Shown: piece by piece, positions 39,327 to 47,336 of the stretch
Position numbering within the stretch: position 1 is the first letter of the stretch
Layout: every line of letters begins with the position of its first letter
DNA from: Candidatus Kapaibacterium sp.
GTDB taxonomy: Bacteria; Bacteroidota; Ignavibacteria; OLB7
Direction: 5' to 3'
NCBI GenBank assembly: GCA_050248595.1
Contig: JBFWSB010000001.1
Span: forward strand, 1 to 47,336
DNA length: 47,336 nucleotides
Translations under genes and position numbers: made by a program
The notes under the pieces: model-generated
Databases searched by the model: none
What the model saw: only the letters and a program-made list of their open reading frames with translations
Told to the model about the DNA's origin: nothing

Positions 39327-40397
39327 TTGCGAACGAAGATTCTCTTCATCTGTGGGTCTATTAACCAGACATCGCAGATGCACCAGATCGCCCGACATTT
39401 GAGTGACTACGATTGCCGCTTCACTCCATACTACGCCGACGGTTTCATCGAAACTCTGCGCCGCAAGGATTATTTGAACTTCACCGTGCTCGGTAACAAA
39501 CTGGCAGAGCGTTGTCTCCGCTACTTAGAGAAGCACAACCTTCCACTCGACCTCCACGGTAGGACAGGAAACTACGACCTGGTCTTCACGTGCAGCGACC
39601 TGGTTATCCCCTCCAACATTTCCACAAGCAAGCTGATTCTGGTGCAGGAGGGGATGACCGATCCAGAGAACCTGATGTACCGGCTGGTGAAGACATTCAA
39701 CCTTCCACGCTACTTGGCGAGCACGGCAACTACCGGACTGAGCGATCAGTATGGCTATTTCTGTGTGGCGAGCGAGGGATATCAACGCCTCTTCAGCCGC
39801 AAGGGTGTTCGCCCGGAAAAGATTCGGGTTACTGGCATCCCGAACTTCGATAACTGTCGCCAATACTTGCAGAACAACTTCCCCCACACAGGCTATGTGT
39901 TAGTGGCAACAAGCGATATGCGGGAGACGCTGAAGTGGGAGAACAGGAAGCGCTTCATTAAGAATTGCTTGGCACTTGCCGACGGAAAGAAACTGATCTT
40001 CAAACTCCACCCAAACGAAAATTTTGAGCGTGCCACCCGTGAAATTTCTCGCTGGGCACCGGACGCCTTAGTCTACCCAACTGGCGACATCAACCACATG
40101 ATCGCAAACTGCGACGTGTTGGTTACCCGCTACTCCAGCGTTGTCTACGTCGGGCTTGCCCTCGAAAAAAGGGTCTACTCCGACTTCGATTTGGATCAGC
40201 TTGCCGACATGACGCCAATCCAAAATGACGCGAACTCAGCTCGGTTGATCGCGGAGGTTGGGCGACGATATATCGCCGACCTTCCAGTCCCAAAATCGTA
40301 CGAAGAGCTGTGGGGAACAGCTCAGTCAACAGCACAACTACAAAGTCACGAAGCAGAACAACTACAAAGCTATTTCTTGTTAGAGGAACAGAGATAG
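39327..40397 (+). CDS. GT-B-fold glycosyltransferase-like protein (capsule/teichoic-type or sialyltransferase-like; family uncertain)
   Basis: TTG start, KILFICGSINQ Rossmann-like N-terminus, LILVQEGMTD, and GKKLIFKLHPNEN (HP motif as in TagF/KpsS/bacterial sialyltransferase-type enzymes). Confidence 0.55.
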   Translation: MRTKILFICGSINQTSQMHQIARHLSDYDCRFTPYYADGFIETLRRKDYLNFTVLGNKLAERCLRYLEKHNLPLDLHGRTGNYDLVFTCSDLVIPSNISTSKLILVQEGMTDPENLMYRLVKTFNLPRYLASTATTGLSDQYGYFCVASEGYQRLFSRKGVRPEKIRVTGIPNFDNCRQYLQNNFPHTGYVLVATSDMRETLKWENRKRFIKNCLALADGKKLIFKLHPNENFERATREISRWAPDALVYPTGDINHMIANCDVLVTRYSSVVYVGLALEKRVYSDFDLDQLADMTPIQNDANSARLIAEVGRRYIADLPVPKSYEELWGTAQSTAQLQSHEAEQLQSYFLLEEQR

Positions 40398-40468
40398 GGA
40401 GAACAGAGTCGGGAAAGCAACGATCTCAACACTCGATTCGGAACCTCTCACCTACTCTCCAGAATACC

Positions 40469-41314
40469 ATGAACATTCTCGTAATTATACAAGCCCGAAC
40501 TGGAAGCAGTCGACTACCAAACAAGGTAATGATGCCGCTGGCCGGAAGACCACTCCTTCAACGGATGATTGAGCGTGTAGAGCGGGCAACAACGCCGAGC
40601 GGTCTACTTGTTGCCACAACGCTTGAACCGGCAGACAATCCAATCAGAAATCTTTGTGCAGAGATTGGTGTGAACTGCTTCAGCGGCCACGCTACCGACC
40701 TGCTGGACCGCCACTACAAAGCTGGATTAGAATATCGCGCAGATGTGATTGTGAAGATACCGTCGGACTGCCCGCTGATCGACCCTCGCGTGGTTGACCG
40801 CGTAATCACATTCTGGCAGCAGAATCGCCGCACCTACGACTACGTGAGCAACCTTCACCCGGCAACGTGGCCGGATGGTCAAGATGTGGAAGTTATTCCA
40901 ATGAACTTGCTGGAGAGAGCGTGGCGAAACGCTGCGCAAAACTTCGAGCGGGAACACACAACCCCCTGGATATGGGAACGCCCCGAACTCTTCCGCCTCG
41001 GCAACGTTGTAAGCGATGACTCTGTGGATCGCTCGATGACGCACCGCTGGACGATTGACTACCCAGAAGACTACACATTCCTGACACAGATTTTCGATGC
41101 ACTCTGGTCTGCAAATCGCCCAGACTTCAGCGTCGAAGAGATTCTCGCCTACCTCGAACAGAGCCCAACGGTGAGTGACATAAACAAGATGTATGCCGGA
41201 GTGAACTGGTATCGCCACCACCTACACGAGCTGCGAACAGTCGACAGGAAGAGAACCCGCAACGTGAAATCAGAAAATGTATTCCAACAAACAGAGATGC
41301 TCCAATATGATTGA
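40469..41314 (+). CDS. SpsF-like cytidylyltransferase (CTP_transf_3 family)
   Basis: Start at MNILVIIQARTGSSRLPNKVMMPLAGRPLLQRMIERV, the classical SpsF/NeuA-type N-terminal motif, with IPSDCPLIDP following. The upstream extension of the track ORF was rejected. Confidence 0.85.
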   Translation: MNILVIIQARTGSSRLPNKVMMPLAGRPLLQRMIERVERATTPSGLLVATTLEPADNPIRNLCAEIGVNCFSGHATDLLDRHYKAGLEYRADVIVKIPSDCPLIDPRVVDRVITFWQQNRRTYDYVSNLHPATWPDGQDVEVIPMNLLERAWRNAAQNFEREHTTPWIWERPELFRLGNVVSDDSVDRSMTHRWTIDYPEDYTFLTQIFDALWSANRPDFSVEEILAYLEQSPTVSDINKMYAGVNWYRHHLHELRTVDRKRTRNVKSENVFQQTEMLQYD

Positions 41315-42164
41315 GAAGGATTACCAGAACCTGAGAGATCGTGCCTTAGTCGTGCGCGAGCATATCATTCGCATGTCAACAGATGGAGGCTGTTTCATTG
41401 GAGCCTCCCTCTCCTGCGCCGACTTGATTCTCTACCTCTACGAGCACGTTCTGAATGTCTCTCCCGACCGAGTAGATGATCCCGACAGAGACTATCTCCT
41501 CCTCTCGAAGGGGCACGACGTTCCGGCACTTTACGGAACTCTTGCTGAGCTTGGGTATATCAAGCAAGATCGTTTGAAGAATCACCTGAAGACGACCGAT
41601 TCAATCTACTGGCACCCGAACCGGGATATACCCGGCATCGAATTTCACTCCGGCTCTCTCGGCCACCTTCTCTCCGTAGCAATCGGCATTGCACTCGACA
41701 TCAAGATGCGGAAGGGAAACAACCGCGTTTTCGTGATCCTCGGCGATGGGGAATTGAACGAAGGCTCAATCTGGGAAGGGGTGCTGGTGGCGAACTCTAT
41801 GAACCTCGACAACCTCACTGTCGTGGTCGACCGAAATCACTTTCAAGCAAACGTTCGCACCGAAGAGTTGATTCGGCTTGAGCCAATCGAGATGAAGTTC
41901 GAGGCGTTCGGCTGGAAGGCGACGAGAATTAACGGACACGACTTCTCCGACATGGAGTGGGCATTCTCAAAGCTTCCATTCTGGAGTGGTAGCCCGAGCG
42001 CGATCATTGCCGACACAGTCCGGGGGAAGGGGTGTCCGAGCATCGAACGCAGAGCCGATCGATGGTTTGTGAACTTCAGCGGAGAAGAGGTAGAGGGATT
42101 GATTGAAGAGTTACGTGGAGGAGAGAGAACAACGTTGACCTCCGAGACATTGATGGTACGGTAA
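41307..42164 (+). CDS. Transketolase, N-terminal (ThDP pyrophosphate-binding) subunit
   Basis: GGCFIGASLSCADLILYLY, LSKGHDVPALYG, GSLGHLLSVAIG and ILGDGELNEGSIWEG (ThDP GDG-X-N motif). The start overlaps the SpsF-like stop by 8 nt. Confidence 0.9.
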   Translation: MIEKDYQNLRDRALVVREHIIRMSTDGGCFIGASLSCADLILYLYEHVLNVSPDRVDDPDRDYLLLSKGHDVPALYGTLAELGYIKQDRLKNHLKTTDSIYWHPNRDIPGIEFHSGSLGHLLSVAIGIALDIKMRKGNNRVFVILGDGELNEGSIWEGVLVANSMNLDNLTVVVDRNHFQANVRTEELIRLEPIEMKFEAFGWKATRINGHDFSDMEWAFSKLPFWSGSPSAIIADTVRGKGCPSIERRADRWFVNFSGEEVEGLIEELRGGERTTLTSETLMVR

Positions 42165-42210
42165 TCATTCCGTGGCAATACAAAACACCACCACACAAAC
42201 AGAAAACCAG

Positions 42211-46070: not shown

Positions 46071-46163
46071 ATCACCTTTGGGTTATAAGATTTTTTTGAG
46101 AGATACGAACGCCGAGACACTTACTACGATCCACTATCTGTTCACTACTAACTACGAACGACT

Positions 46164-47081
46164 ATGTCTTCAAACTTCATCAAACTCGGGAATCGACTTG
46201 TGGGGGCTGGATGCCCTACATACGTTATCGGAGAGATTGGCATCAACCACAACGGCTCGCTTGACGTTGCAAAGAGATTGATCGACGCTGCGGTTTTAGC
46301 CGGGTGCGACGCCGTGAAATTCCAGAAGCGAACACCGGAAGATTGTGTTCCCTACAGCCAGTGGAACATTGAGCGCGACACGCCCTGGGGACGGATGACA
46401 TACATTGAATATCGCCACAGAGTTGAGTTCAGCTACGACGAGTATGAAGAAATTGACAACTACTGCAAGCAGAAGGGGATTGATTGGTTTGCTTCTCCGT
46501 GGGATGAGCGGGCAGTGGATTTCCTCGAAGAGTTCAATCCAGTCTGCTACAAAGCGGCCTCTGCCTCACTGACCGACCACGCTCTCCTGAAGAAAATGCG
46601 CGACACTGGCCGCCCCCTGATGATCTCCACCGGCATGTCGACATCAGAAGAGATTCAGGCGGCAGTGGACATCCTCGGGACAGAGAATCTACTTATCGCA
46701 CACTCCACCTCAACCTACCCTTGCCCGCCACACGAGCTGAACCTTCGGATGATCTCTACACTCAAGAAAGAGTGGCCAACAGTTCCAATCGGATACTCCG
46801 GTCACGAGACAGGGTTGGCGACAACGTGGGCGGCAGTGGCCCTCGGAGCTGACTTCGTTGAGCGGCACATCACACTCGACCGTGCGATGTGGGGGAGCGA
46901 TCAAGCCGCCTCCATCGAGCCGGGAGGATTGATTCGTCTCGTGGCAAACATTCGGGATATCGAGTTGGCTCTCGGCGATGGCATCAAGCGGGTGTACGAG
47001 AGTGAGCAAGGACCTCGCAAAAAACTTCGCCGCGTGCCTGACATTCACCAAACTCCTGAGAAAGTAGTCGTACGGAAATAG
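46164..47081 (+). CDS. NeuB/SpsE-family sugar-acid (N-acylneuraminate-type) synthase, short form without the C-terminal SAF domain
   Basis: PTYVIGEIGINHNGSLDVAKRLIDAAVLAGCDAVKFQKR, PLMISTGMST, IAHSTSTYPCP and IGYSGHETG are the NeuB TIM-barrel blocks. The protein ends at 305 aa with no antifreeze-like/SAF domain. Confidence 0.88.
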   Translation: MSSNFIKLGNRLVGAGCPTYVIGEIGINHNGSLDVAKRLIDAAVLAGCDAVKFQKRTPEDCVPYSQWNIERDTPWGRMTYIEYRHRVEFSYDEYEEIDNYCKQKGIDWFASPWDERAVDFLEEFNPVCYKAASASLTDHALLKKMRDTGRPLMISTGMSTSEEIQAAVDILGTENLLIAHSTSTYPCPPHELNLRMISTLKKEWPTVPIGYSGHETGLATTWAAVALGADFVERHITLDRAMWGSDQAASIEPGGLIRLVANIRDIELALGDGIKRVYESEQGPRKKLRRVPDIHQTPEKVVVRK

Positions 47082-47089
47082 AAAGACGT

Positions 47090-47336
47090 ATGGGATTCTT
47101 TACAGCAGAAACAGTCGCAACGGGAGGAGTGCTGGGGGCAGCACTCCTCTTGATTCTTCTTGAGCGAGCCATACCCTACAATCCCCGCCAGGTTCTCCTC
47201 CGCAAGGGGTTTTGGAATGACTTAGGGATGTACACAATTGTTCAGAGCTTCGTTCTCTCGCAGGTGATCTTCGGTTTCGCCTTCTGGTTAGATGGAGTTA
47301 CCGGACTCTCAACGAAGGGGATTCTCTCCAACTGGC
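47090..47336 (+). CDS. Membrane protein, probably fatty-acid hydroxylase/sterol desaturase superfamily (N-terminal fragment; runs off the right edge)
   Basis: ATG at 47090 gives MGFFTAETVATGGVLGAALLLILLERAIPYNPRQVLLRKGFWNDLGMYTIVQSFVLSQVIFGF... The LLERxxPxxxxQ start is typical of this family. The His boxes would lie beyond the window. Confidence 0.45.
   Translation, partial: MGFFTAETVATGGVLGAALLLILLERAIPYNPRQVLLRKGFWNDLGMYTIVQSFVLSQVIFGFAFWLDGVTGLSTKGILSNW

Follow-up and report, generated by a model that had tools for sequence, protein, structure and literature searches.

The right-hand end of a 47,336-nucleotide (nt) stretch of DNA from Candidatus Kapaibacterium sp. (GenBank assembly GCA_050248595.1, contig JBFWSB010000001.1, positions 1 to 47,336 of the forward strand), referred to below as the window, is occupied by what is most likely an operon for a sialic acid-like sugar. 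The operon comprises nine co-directional open reading frames (ORFs) on the + strand at positions 39327–47336, as defined by the ORF list and by Pfam and NCBIfam scans. An earlier note, made from the sequence alone, had described this segment as a non-canonical CMP-sugar-acid cluster, and the present analysis supports a coherent, non-canonical ulosonic-acid operon with CMP activation. All of the genes named in that note are present on the + strand where it had placed them, and one further gene, encoding a DUF3592 protein (44677–45141), had been missed.

The first gene (39327–40397) encodes a GT-B fold protein, a putative CMP-ulosonate glycosyltransferase recognized through sub-threshold Pfam matches, an AF2 model and Foldseek. 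It is followed by the gene for an SpsF-type cytidylyltransferase, the putative CMP-ulosonate synthetase (~40469–41314; CTP_transf_3, PF02348, E 6.6e-30), whose start is taken to be ATG 40469. The next two genes encode a divergent thiamine diphosphate (ThDP) enzyme related to transketolase (TK) and divided into two subunits, namely an N-terminal subunit with the PP domain (TK-N, 41307–42164; Transketolase_N, PF00456, E 1.9e-26) and a C-terminal subunit with the Pyr and C domains (TK-C, 42172–43173; Transket_pyr, PF02779, and Transketolase_C, PF02780). The start of the TK-N gene overlaps the stop of the cytidylyltransferase gene by 8 nt, just as the earlier note had stated, and the spacing between the operon genes ranges from this overlap up to a gap of 115 nt. 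Downstream lie the genes for a class-III pyridoxal phosphate (PLP) aminotransferase resembling glutamate-1-semialdehyde (GSA) aminomutase (AT3, 43218–44561; Aminotran_3, PF00202, E 4e-46), the small DUF3592 membrane protein of 154 residues (PF12158, E 3.6e-6), a classical short-chain dehydrogenase/reductase (SDR) oxidoreductase (45165–46070; adh_short_C2, E 8.6e-45), and a NeuB-family synthase of 305 residues that lacks a SAF domain (46164–47081; PF03102, E 2.9e-79). The last gene, of which the 5′ part (82 codons) lies at 47090–47336 before it exits the window, encodes a membrane di-iron FA_hydroxylase. None of the operon proteins reaches the cut-off of a curated NCBIfam equivalog.

An identical, longer contig (L001) contains the final ORF as a complete FA_hydroxylase of 262 amino acids at 3417–4205 (PF04116, E 6e-31). 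Past this gene come unrelated genes on the opposite strand (Metallophos, TraB/GumN, an outer-membrane protein, RuvX), and therefore the operon ends after the hydroxylase, with nothing related to sialic acids beyond it. The earlier note had allowed for canonical Neu/Leg/Pse genes just past the right edge of the window, and on L001 these are absent. None of the upstream enzymes of these pathways is found in the window or in the 7 kb past its right edge, and no 2-epimerase, 4,6-dehydratase, DegT aminotransferase or N-acetyltransferase lies in or beside the operon.

Conservation and modularity of the operon

Relatives of the operon were collected with the NeuB protein as query against one genome per species. 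This gave 528 relatives, of which the best 80 loci by score were examined with 10-kb flanks, by searching them with the window proteins and by clustering all of their ORFs. At least 10 loci of other phyla, and three more Kapaibacteria-like contigs, carry these families in unchanged order. Because this order recurs across phyla, the association of these genes goes far beyond chance. The operon is real, conserved across several bacterial phyla, and modular.

Clusters of type A have the order GT-B, SpsF, TK-N, TK-C, AT3, SDR, in some cases a phosphatase of the haloacid dehalogenase (HAD) superfamily, NeuB and hydroxylase. They are found in Ignavibacteriota, Chitinophagales, a Bacteroidia metagenome-assembled genome (MAG), a Hyphomicrobiales MAG and Anaerolineae (L008, L009, L012, L014, L015, L018, L031, L032, L051 and L081), and also in the Kapaibacteria-like contigs L088 and L089/L090, of which the last two are truncated at the left end. 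Type B is type A minus the TK pair (L035, L043, L045 and L083) and includes Ignavibacterium. Type C is a minimal cluster of SDR, HAD, NeuB and FA_hydroxylase, present in Chloroherpeton thalassium and in Myxococcota. Type D, found in Lewinellaceae, Saprospirales and Bacteroidota (L011, L025, L029 and L055), runs from a methyltransferase through SDR, HAD, NeuB, GT-B, a GFO/IolG-like dehydrogenase, a NeuA/PseF-like cytidylyltransferase and a PhyH dioxygenase to a flippase-like protein, with PhyH detected in L011 and L055 only. In Chlorobiaceae, HAD and NeuB stand alone among housekeeping genes, and many Streptomyces carry NeuB after a DUF6716 glycosyltransferase and a NeuA::HAD fusion. ORF clustering of the examined loci revealed no further gene family conserved on either flank.

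The earlier note had regarded the cluster as built around a split transketolase. This part of its description is not supported, as the TK pair is missing from the four type B loci and from the minimal SDR-HAD-NeuB-hydroxylase clusters. Because type B clusters do without it, the ThDP enzyme is an accessory step, an optional add-on rather than the core of the pathway. The DUF3592 gene is restricted to the window and its closest relatives L089/L090, is absent from L088 and the other syntenic loci, and is a lineage-specific insertion. The lineage that bears it also lacks the HAD gene found between SDR and NeuB elsewhere.

The synthase and its phosphatase partner

The NeuB-family protein matches the full PF03102 model (positions 1–241), which represents the metal-binding and catalytic domain, and its motifs “GYSGHETG” and “ERHIT” align with the corresponding motifs of NmNeuB, human NANS and Bacteroides thetaiotaomicron BT1714. 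It has no match to PF08666, the antifreeze-like SAF domain that in canonical NeuB, PseI and LegI helps to form the sugar site, and ends about 25 residues past the barrel, in agreement with the earlier note, and the proteins of its SAF-less clade are 290–305 amino acids long. The protein scores 255.6 bits against the NeuB_NnaB equivalog TIGR03569 (cut-off 399.65) and 209.4 bits against the PseI equivalog TIGR03586 (cut-off 340.25), with identities of 30% to NmNeuB and 32% to Campylobacter jejuni PseI. Among solved structures, SpsE, 6ncs, PseI and NmNeuB are 27–34% identical to it. The entry 6ncs, a SAF-less “sialic acid synthetase” of 290 residues, and the entry 6oew, an SpsF-like “cytidylyltransferase”, are both uncharacterized and are among the best PDB matches of the operon proteins. 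An analogous module may exist in their source organism, probably Leptospira.

The closest characterized relatives of the synthase use phosphorylated sugars. Human Neu5Ac-9-P synthase (NANS, SIAS_HUMAN) is 43–44% identical to the window NeuB (221 bits), and BT1714, which has a SAF domain, is 37–38% identical (160 bits). BT1714 was taken as the synthase encoded directly upstream of a HAD protein 99% identical to PDB 3E81 (BT1713), and its record is named “sialic acid synthase [Bacteroides thetaiotaomicron]”. A neighbor-joining tree joins the window NeuB clade to NANS and BT1714 and separates it from enzymes acting on non-phosphorylated sugars. Moreover, the loop “WG[RK]..TY.E[YH][RK]” is common to the window clade, NANS and BT1714 and is missing from the other NeuB-type enzymes compared, so that by identity and by its α2-β2 loop the window NeuB has the sequence features of a NANS/Kdn-9-P synthase. 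The residue M42 of human NANS, a marker of Kdn specificity, aligns with alanine in the window NeuB and is uninformative. The α2-β2 loop of the human enzyme has been credited with the use of the phosphorylated substrate, and SAF-less NeuBs of environmental bacteria, including Streptomyces, have been found to cluster together with no assigned function (PMC8208679). BT1714 and BT1713 are described in PMC6200933, which cites Wang 2008, as a characterized Kdn-9-P synthase and phosphatase.

A phosphatase of the same kind accompanies most of the synthases. In most orthologous loci a HAD gene lies directly upstream of NeuB, and the best PDB match of its product is BT1713 (3E81). The NCBIfam model that fits it best is that of Kdn-9-P phosphatase (NF058599, 159.8 bits, cut-off 180); KdsC scores lower. 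In the alignment it retains Glu56, Arg64 and Lys67 of BT1713, residues that reportedly mark Kdn-9-P specificity. The HAD gene is missing from the lineage of the window and from some Ignavibacteria. The Metallophos gene that stands convergently beside the operon on L001 was considered as a substitute phosphatase, and its product is not homologous to the Metallophos protein inside the Anaerolineae cluster, which gives this candidate no support.

A further connection leads to Streptomyces. NeuB is strikingly conserved, being 67–79% identical between Kapaibacteria, Chlorobi, Ignavibacteriota, Myxococcota, Anaerolineae and Streptomyces, and the window protein is 68% identical to the Streptomyces NeuB of clusters with a DUF6716 glycosyltransferase (GT), NeuA::HAD and NeuB. 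This layout matches SCO4879–4881 (NeuE-like, NeuA, NeuB), which lies within the PhoP-activated teichulosonic-acid cluster SCO4873–4882 (PMC3479208); the same assignment of SCO4873–4882 is given in PMC13011467 with reference to Ostash 2014. Teichulosonic acid is a polymer of Kdn and galactose (PMC11481543). In Streptomyces sp. NBC_01384 (L073, 8268–9986, + strand), an apparent fusion of CTP_transf_3 with a C-terminal HAD follows the putative DUF6716 glycosyltransferase; the start of this fusion is uncertain, as ORF calling is crude in high-GC DNA.

Because of the clade of NeuB, the HAD partner and the link to the Kdn cluster of Streptomyces, the substrate of the synthase is, as far as these relationships indicate, most likely a hexose-6-phosphate, with the conversion of mannose-6-phosphate to Kdn-9-phosphate as the leading candidate reaction. 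Such a substrate would need none of TK, AT3 and SDR.

The ThDP enzyme, the putative tailoring enzymes and the probable acceptor

The closest PDB relative of both ThDP subunits is the split TK of Carboxydothermus hydrogenoformans (6yak, 167 bits, for the N-terminal subunit; 6yaj, 160 bits, for the C-terminal subunit). DXS and human TK follow with about 96–98 bits against the C-terminal subunit and about 96–117 bits over both subunits. The TK pair of the window and 10 orthologs were aligned to E. coli TktA (from NC_000913.3), whose residue numbering is used here. The cofactor residues H66, H100, G114, D155, N185, E411 and H473 are kept in all 11. In a transketolase, the histidine pair (H26 and H261 in E. 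coli, H30 and H263 in yeast) acts on the C3 hydroxyl of the donor and the carbonyl of the acceptor, while R358, S385, H461 and R520 bind the substrate phosphate and D469 binds the 2-hydroxyl of the acceptor. All 11 proteins have lost the histidine pair: H26 is replaced by phenylalanine, with “GGCFIGAS” in place of the canonical “GHPG”, and H261 by an aromatic residue (phenylalanine or tryptophan, depending on the alignment), with “DRWF” or “RWF” in place of “WHG”.

The substrate residues have changed as well. H461 is replaced by valine or phenylalanine and D469 by asparagine in 11/11. The position of R358 precedes the N-terminus of most orthologs, which begin “MTYE”, and an equivalent of this arginine is absent; the true start of the TK-C gene may accordingly be ATG 42211. 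In the region of S385 “ADL” has become “AEN”, and the R520 position is variable, so that neither residue is kept, although the alignment near R358, S385 and R520 is less certain than elsewhere. The canonical split TK (6yak) and human TK retain the residues that are replaced here, including the histidine pair. The transketolase function (EC 2.2.1.1) assumed in the earlier note is thus not supported, the catalytic and substrate residues being replaced throughout and the ThDP-binding residues kept. For the same reason the pair is, by its pattern of residues, a TK-fold ThDP enzyme and not a transketolase, and neither ketose phosphates nor aldose phosphates are likely to be its substrates. The same positions have been mutated so that E. 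coli TK accepts non-phosphorylated aliphatic aldehydes. As a separate observation, L088 has a gene for thiamine pyrophosphokinase (14250–14921, − strand) some 2.5 kb past the downstream end of the operon and on the opposite strand, probably by coincidence.

The aminotransferase is a class-III PLP enzyme by PF00202, and it does not qualify as HemL: its best NCBIfam match is the GSA-aminomutase model PRK06209 (380.6 bits, cut-off 486), and the hemL model TIGR00713 gives 246.9 bits against a cut-off of 527.3. Its PDB relatives are GSA aminomutases (about 195 bits), a D-phenylglycine aminotransferase, the aminopentol aminotransferase FumI, and aminoglycoside C-6′ aminotransferases. In the examined loci AT3 occurs only alongside an SpsF-type gene (types A and B). 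The SDR shows the motifs TGxxxGxG and YxxxK, and its nearest NCBIfam models, all below cut-off, are gluconate 5-dehydrogenase, glucose 1-dehydrogenase, PRK09186 and KduD, among them several dehydrogenases of sugar acids. It is present in cluster types A–D, always immediately upstream of NeuB or of HAD-NeuB. Most plausibly, SDR and AT3 tailor the sugar. In the Anaerolineae type A cluster (L051, 10967–13995, + strand), NeuB is directly followed by a gene for a 372-residue protein with a C-terminal GNAT domain, then by a Metallophos phosphoesterase, with PhyH replacing FA_hydroxylase; the GNAT gene fits an amine that is later acetylated.

The SpsF-type protein matches PF02348 at model positions 2–205 of 217, carries the motif “ARTGSSRLPNK”, and thus contains the CTP-binding domain. 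Against the KdsB models it scores 37–68 bits (cut-offs 155–281) and against PseF 21 bits (cut-off 205.7), in matches that cover the N-terminal part only. Its best PDB match is 6oew (125 bits).

The GT-B protein is harder to place. Its match to Glyphos_transf (PF04464) reaches 20.9 bits against a threshold of 22.1 (residues 216–274, E 2e-4), so that it is not TagF-like by this measure, and its match to Epimerase_2 (PF02350) stays below the gathering score (15.4 against 30.6 bits, E 8e-3). The AF2 model (pLDDT 87.8, pTM 0.85) has a GT-B fold, and all 206 PDB matches found by Foldseek at E ≤ 1e-3 are of GT-B or epimerase type. UDP-GlcNAc 2-epimerases come first (TM ~0.5, 11–14% identity), followed by the CDP-dependent polymerases TagF, TarL and Bcs3 (TM ~0.4, 12–14% identity). 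The family is large (6777 matches, “hypothetical proteins”), and its invariant residues include G10, S11, N13, Q14, T15, H19, Q107-E108-G109 and H228-P229. The last two motifs recall the D/E-D/E-G and HP motifs of bacterial sialyltransferases, which is a lead only. A role as NeuC-like 2-epimerase, suggested by the top Foldseek matches, was rejected as the main reading, because the protein falls well short of the Pfam threshold and its family is found alongside CMP-transferases and NeuBs for phosphorylated substrates. Its N-terminal residues differ from the “GTRPE”-type motif typical of epimerases. The family accompanies NeuB in cluster types A, B and D.

The complete protein on L001 places the hydroxylase in the FA_hydroxylase superfamily (PF04116). 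Its sole NCBIfam match is the ornithine-lipid hydroxylase OlsE (118.4 bits, cut-off 475), of which it is not an ortholog. OlsE is likewise a membrane di-iron enzyme, and its substrate is a membrane lipid. It is kept downstream of NeuB in most clusters, and a PhyH dioxygenase takes its place in L051 and in L011/L055. Because PhyH replaces FA_hydroxylase in some clusters, an oxygenation step appears to belong to the pathway.

The operon contains one GT, and the Pfam scan and the clustering of locus ORFs detected no Wzx/Wzy, ABC exporter or polymerase. The flippase-like protein of type D passes the cut-off of TIGR00374 and distantly resembles the glucosaminyl-phosphatidylglycerol flippase. A Lewinellaceae MAG (L011) encodes a serine palmitoyltransferase (18710–19924, + strand; NF047600, 637.9 bits, cut-off 640) on the strand of NeuB and 8 kb downstream of it, after PhyH, a lipid-flippase-like gene and a Usp gene. 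Given, as indirect indications, the single GT without export genes, the OlsE-like hydroxylase, the flippase-like gene of type D and the serine palmitoyltransferase of L011, the acceptor is most likely a membrane lipid. Kdn-sphingolipids are known in haptophytes (PMC6200933), and for Chlorobium limicola the presence of an aminoglycosphingolipid has been described (Jensen 1991, as cited in PMC11762602). In Chlorobiaceae the context of NeuB consists only of HAD-NeuB among housekeeping genes, and the link to the Chlorobium glycosphingolipid stays a lead. This lipid reportedly contains neuraminic acid.

Proposed pathway, alternatives and significance

Gene content, operon structure and synteny, the varying gene sets of the clusters, the clades in which NeuB and HAD fall, and the altered active site of the ThDP enzyme are observed, and from them we infer a substrate, an order and position of the tailoring steps, and an acceptor. 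It is slightly more likely than not that this is a self-contained operon that makes and CMP-activates a 3-deoxy-2-ulosonic acid with nine carbons, of Kdn/neuraminic type and further tailored, by the phosphorylated route found in animals, Bacteroides and Streptomyces, and that probably places it on a lipid. NeuB would condense phosphoenolpyruvate (PEP) with a hexose-6-phosphate, most likely mannose-6-phosphate, to give an ulosonate-9-phosphate. The phosphate would be removed by the HAD in most orthologous clusters, and by another phosphatase in this HAD-less Kapaibacterium lineage. Oxidation by the SDR and transamination by AT3 would then replace a hydroxyl with an amino group, following the logic of the Kdo8N pathway, at a carbon and at a stage relative to CMP activation that the scheme leaves free. 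The ThDP enzyme may provide an optional modification of a non-phosphorylated, less polar substrate; a 2-oxo acid might donate a C2 unit or be decarboxylated, and acyl transfer is a further candidate chemistry. The SpsF-type enzyme would make the CMP-sugar, the GT-B protein would transfer the sugar to the acceptor, probably a membrane lipid, and the membrane di-iron hydroxylase would hydroxylate the transferred product.

Several observations weigh against this scheme. The synthase is only 37–43% identical to the characterized Kdn-9-P and Neu5Ac-9-P synthases, and these carry the SAF domain that it lacks. No HAD phosphatase gene is found in the whole 47-kb window or in L088–L090. The best scores of AT3 are to GSA aminomutases and give no indication that it acts on a sugar. 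The SDR is present without AT3 in types C and D, and for this reason the pairing of the two is not certain; they need not pair, and the SDR could act before condensation. In addition, the structures nearest to the GT-B protein are not those of known sialyl- or Kdo-transferases. The link to lipids is drawn from related cluster types and not from the window, and of the four type D loci only L011 shows a serine palmitoyltransferase within its 10-kb flank. Finally, the 80 of 528 loci were ranked by score, and they provide architectures, their counts not being prevalences.

The proposed scheme resembles several known systems in part. The Kdn pathway of B. thetaiotaomicron likewise combines a NeuB-family synthase, a small C0-type HAD (here in the orthologous clusters) and a cytidylyltransferase, whereas the window lacks the HAD and adds an SDR, a class-III aminotransferase, a ThDP enzyme, a di-iron hydroxylase and a GT of another family. 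The Streptomyces teichulosonic-acid cluster shares the SAF-less type of NeuB, a phosphatase (fused to NeuA in Streptomyces) and CMP activation; it differs in lacking SDR, AT3, TK-like and hydroxylase genes, in using a DUF6716 glycosyltransferase and a NeuA-type instead of an SpsF-type enzyme, and in its product, a wall polymer of a monoderm. The animal NANS/NANP/CMAS route includes the closest characterized synthase, NANS, with the shared loop, and proceeds from a phosphorylated substrate through a phosphatase, but NANS has a C-terminal SAF/antifreeze-like domain and no tailoring enzymes are associated with it. The canonical NeuB/NeuC/NeuA, LegI and PseI systems have NeuB-family PEP condensation and CMP activation in common with the operon; their upstream enzymes are absent here, and the low identity (27–34%) to NmNeuB, PseI and SpsE and the lack of SAF set the synthase apart. 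As for the ThDP enzyme, it shares its two-subunit layout and ThDP-binding residues with the split TK of C. hydrogenoformans (6YAJ/6YAK), which keeps “GHPG”, “WHG” and “THAG...GEDG”; at these positions F, F/W, V/F and N stand in the cluster enzyme, which also lacks the phosphate-binding arginines.

A parallel to the role proposed for SDR and AT3 is the formation of Kdo8N in Shewanella, where the alcohol dehydrogenase KdnB and the aminotransferase KdnA reportedly act on Kdo before CMP activation. There too an ulosonic acid is said to be oxidized and transaminated before it is activated, although by an Fe-dependent alcohol dehydrogenase and an aminotransferase of another class on an eight-carbon sugar, as opposed to a classical SDR and a class-III enzyme. 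In a more specific form of the scheme, Kdn would be made from mannose-6-phosphate and converted after condensation by SDR and AT3 to a nonulosonic acid with a free amine, which would be elaborated in the TK-bearing version and carried on a membrane (sphingo)lipid. This would amount to a second, convergent route to neuraminic acid or to an isomeric amino-Kdn, and the rebuilt, hydrophobic active site of the TK-bearing version might extend, branch or acylate the chain to give a higher-carbon or new CMP-ulosonic acid. Taken with all of its parts together, this form is rather doubtful.

Of the alternatives, the one that survives best had been put forward in the earlier note, and holds that TK, AT and SDR build an amino-aldose, which NeuB then condenses with PEP. 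It draws on the presence of TK, AT3 and SDR upstream of NeuB in one operon, on the constant position of the SDR directly upstream of (HAD-)NeuB, and on the ability that a class-III aminotransferase could in principle have to aminate a ketose at C2. The notion that these enzymes act before condensation is weakened by the synthase, which falls in the sugar-6-phosphate clade with NANS and BT1714 and has a HAD of the Kdn-9-P phosphatase type as its usual neighbor, both of which indicate a hexose-6-phosphate. Moreover, orthologs at 67–79% identity stand in clusters free of TK, AT and SDR (Chlorobiaceae and Streptomyces, including the SCO4879–4881-type clusters at 68%), which argues for a common, ordinary substrate of NeuB. 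Type B clusters, which lack TK, keep AT3, SpsF, GT-B and NeuB at 50–68% identity, and the TK pair itself has neither the catalytic histidine pair nor the sugar-phosphate-binding residues. The placement of the synthase with a characterized clade comes near to refuting a need for TK, AT and SDR, if not fully, the identity being 37–43% only. The amino-aldose scheme is therefore considered unlikely.

A second alternative takes the weak Glyphos_transf match of the GT-B protein, and its resemblance in fold to TagF, TarL and Bcs3, at face value. The ulosonate-9-phosphate would retain its phosphate and be decarboxylated as a 2-oxo acid by the ThDP enzyme, AT3 would aminate the resulting aldehyde, and the aminopolyol phosphate so formed would be activated to a CDP-alcohol, from which the GT-B protein would transfer a phospho-alcohol in a TagF-like reaction, as in teichoic acid synthesis. 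The missing HAD in the window fits such a route, as do the loss from the ThDP enzyme of residues for activating an aldehyde acceptor, as might be expected of a simple decarboxylase, and the general preference of class-III aminotransferases for aldehydes. However, a phosphatase of the Kdn-9-P type is encoded in most full clusters, and the characterized CTP_transf_3 enzymes make CMP-ketoacids and are not known to make CDP-alcohols. TK-less clusters keep orthologous SpsF and GT-B, and hence the substrate of these two cannot depend on the ThDP step. Ulosonic acids have in addition been seen only as CMP forms (10.64898/2026.04.20.719630), which also counts against this proposal, and it is held to be very unlikely.

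The lipid context of type D clusters can also be taken further, to an operon that makes the whole glycolipid. In this case TK would add a C2 ketol to a fatty aldehyde, AT3 would aminate the resulting 2-ketone to a sphingoid-like 2-amino-1,3-diol, which would be hydroxylated by the FA_hydroxylase, and the GT-B protein would add a CMP-Kdn-type sugar. The TK substitutions do fall on the positions mutated in the engineering of TK for aliphatic aldehydes (H26, H461, D469, R358 and R520), AT3 is related to the aminopentol aminotransferase FumI, and the FA_hydroxylase family includes sphingolipid hydroxylases. Yet type B clusters have AT3 but no TK, genes for an acyltransferase or a ceramide synthase are missing from the operon, as is a source of fatty aldehyde, and the equivalent of His261, which is important for carboligation by TK, is lost. 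L011 moreover has a normal serine palmitoyltransferase and thus the canonical sphingoid route nearby, and the proposal as a whole appears highly improbable. Barely credible, finally, is a plain CMP-Kdn pathway beside an unrelated housekeeping transketolase, hemL and fabG-like SDR: each extra gene has a housekeeping look-alike, but the idea is already contradicted by the same gene order beside NeuB across phyla, the lost canonical TK residues, the scores of AT3 and SDR below the hemL and FabG cut-offs, and the tight packing with one overlap. Whatever probability these readings leave over belongs to something else.

Four co-directional genes directly upstream of the operon in the window (33506–38942, + strand) encode a DUF4402 protein, a 327-residue Fn3-like/Ig-like protein, an 857-residue outer-membrane protein with a CarboxypepD_reg/SdrD_B-like domain at its C-terminal end, and a 345-residue protein without a Pfam match. 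They resemble a pilus system of chaperone-usher type or of spore-coat-U-like type, and in other genomes the operon does not have them as neighbors. Upstream of these lies a regulatory block on the − strand (27564–33015) with a sigma-54-dependent response regulator (27564–28934), a multi-PAS histidine kinase (29543–31867) and a FIST-domain sensor (31864–33015), the last two genes overlapping by 4 nt. A squalene/phytoene synthase gene (7378–8328, − strand) and the gene for a 996-residue membrane protein of a TMEM260-like protein O-mannosyltransferase family (17536–20526, − strand) have no link to the operon.

Nonulosonic acids are key surface determinants, and the bacterial routes to Neu, Leg, Pse and Kdn have been worked out mostly in pathogens. 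Whereas the core of the proposed pathway, a phosphorylated Kdn/Neu route with CMP activation, is known, its set of tailoring enzymes, its divergent ThDP enzyme, its GT family and its probable lipid target are new. Among the papers that it covered, a literature search found no characterized pathway of this composition, as the earlier note had supposed. It returned nothing that combines transketolase with NeuNAc synthase, GSA aminotransferase and cytidylyltransferase, nothing on sterol desaturase together with NeuNAc synthase or on Leptospira rfb together with the operon genes, and, for transketolase and nonulosonic acid, a sole match that is irrelevant.

The operon as read here joins a phosphorylated route of the animal type to tailoring enzymes that have never been connected with sialic acids. 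It is common in environmental Bacteroidota, Chlorobi-group bacteria, Ignavibacteriota and Chloroflexota, and there are thousands of homologs of its GT and NeuB. If the proposed pathway is true, it would provide a new CMP-sugar and a new glycosyltransferase family, together with a natural TK-fold enzyme whose active site is like those of directed-evolution variants and which would be of interest for biocatalysis. If the amino-Kdn lipid is what the operon makes, it would fill a gap in the genetics of lipids like the Chlorobium amino-glycosphingolipid of 1991. Mass-spectrometric surveys have revealed unassigned CMP-ulosonic acids without a known pathway, including higher-carbon ones (10.64898/2026.04.20.719630), and clusters like this operon are obvious candidates for them. 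More broadly, the operon would be a possible genetic basis of sialic-acid-like glycolipids in free-living bacteria.

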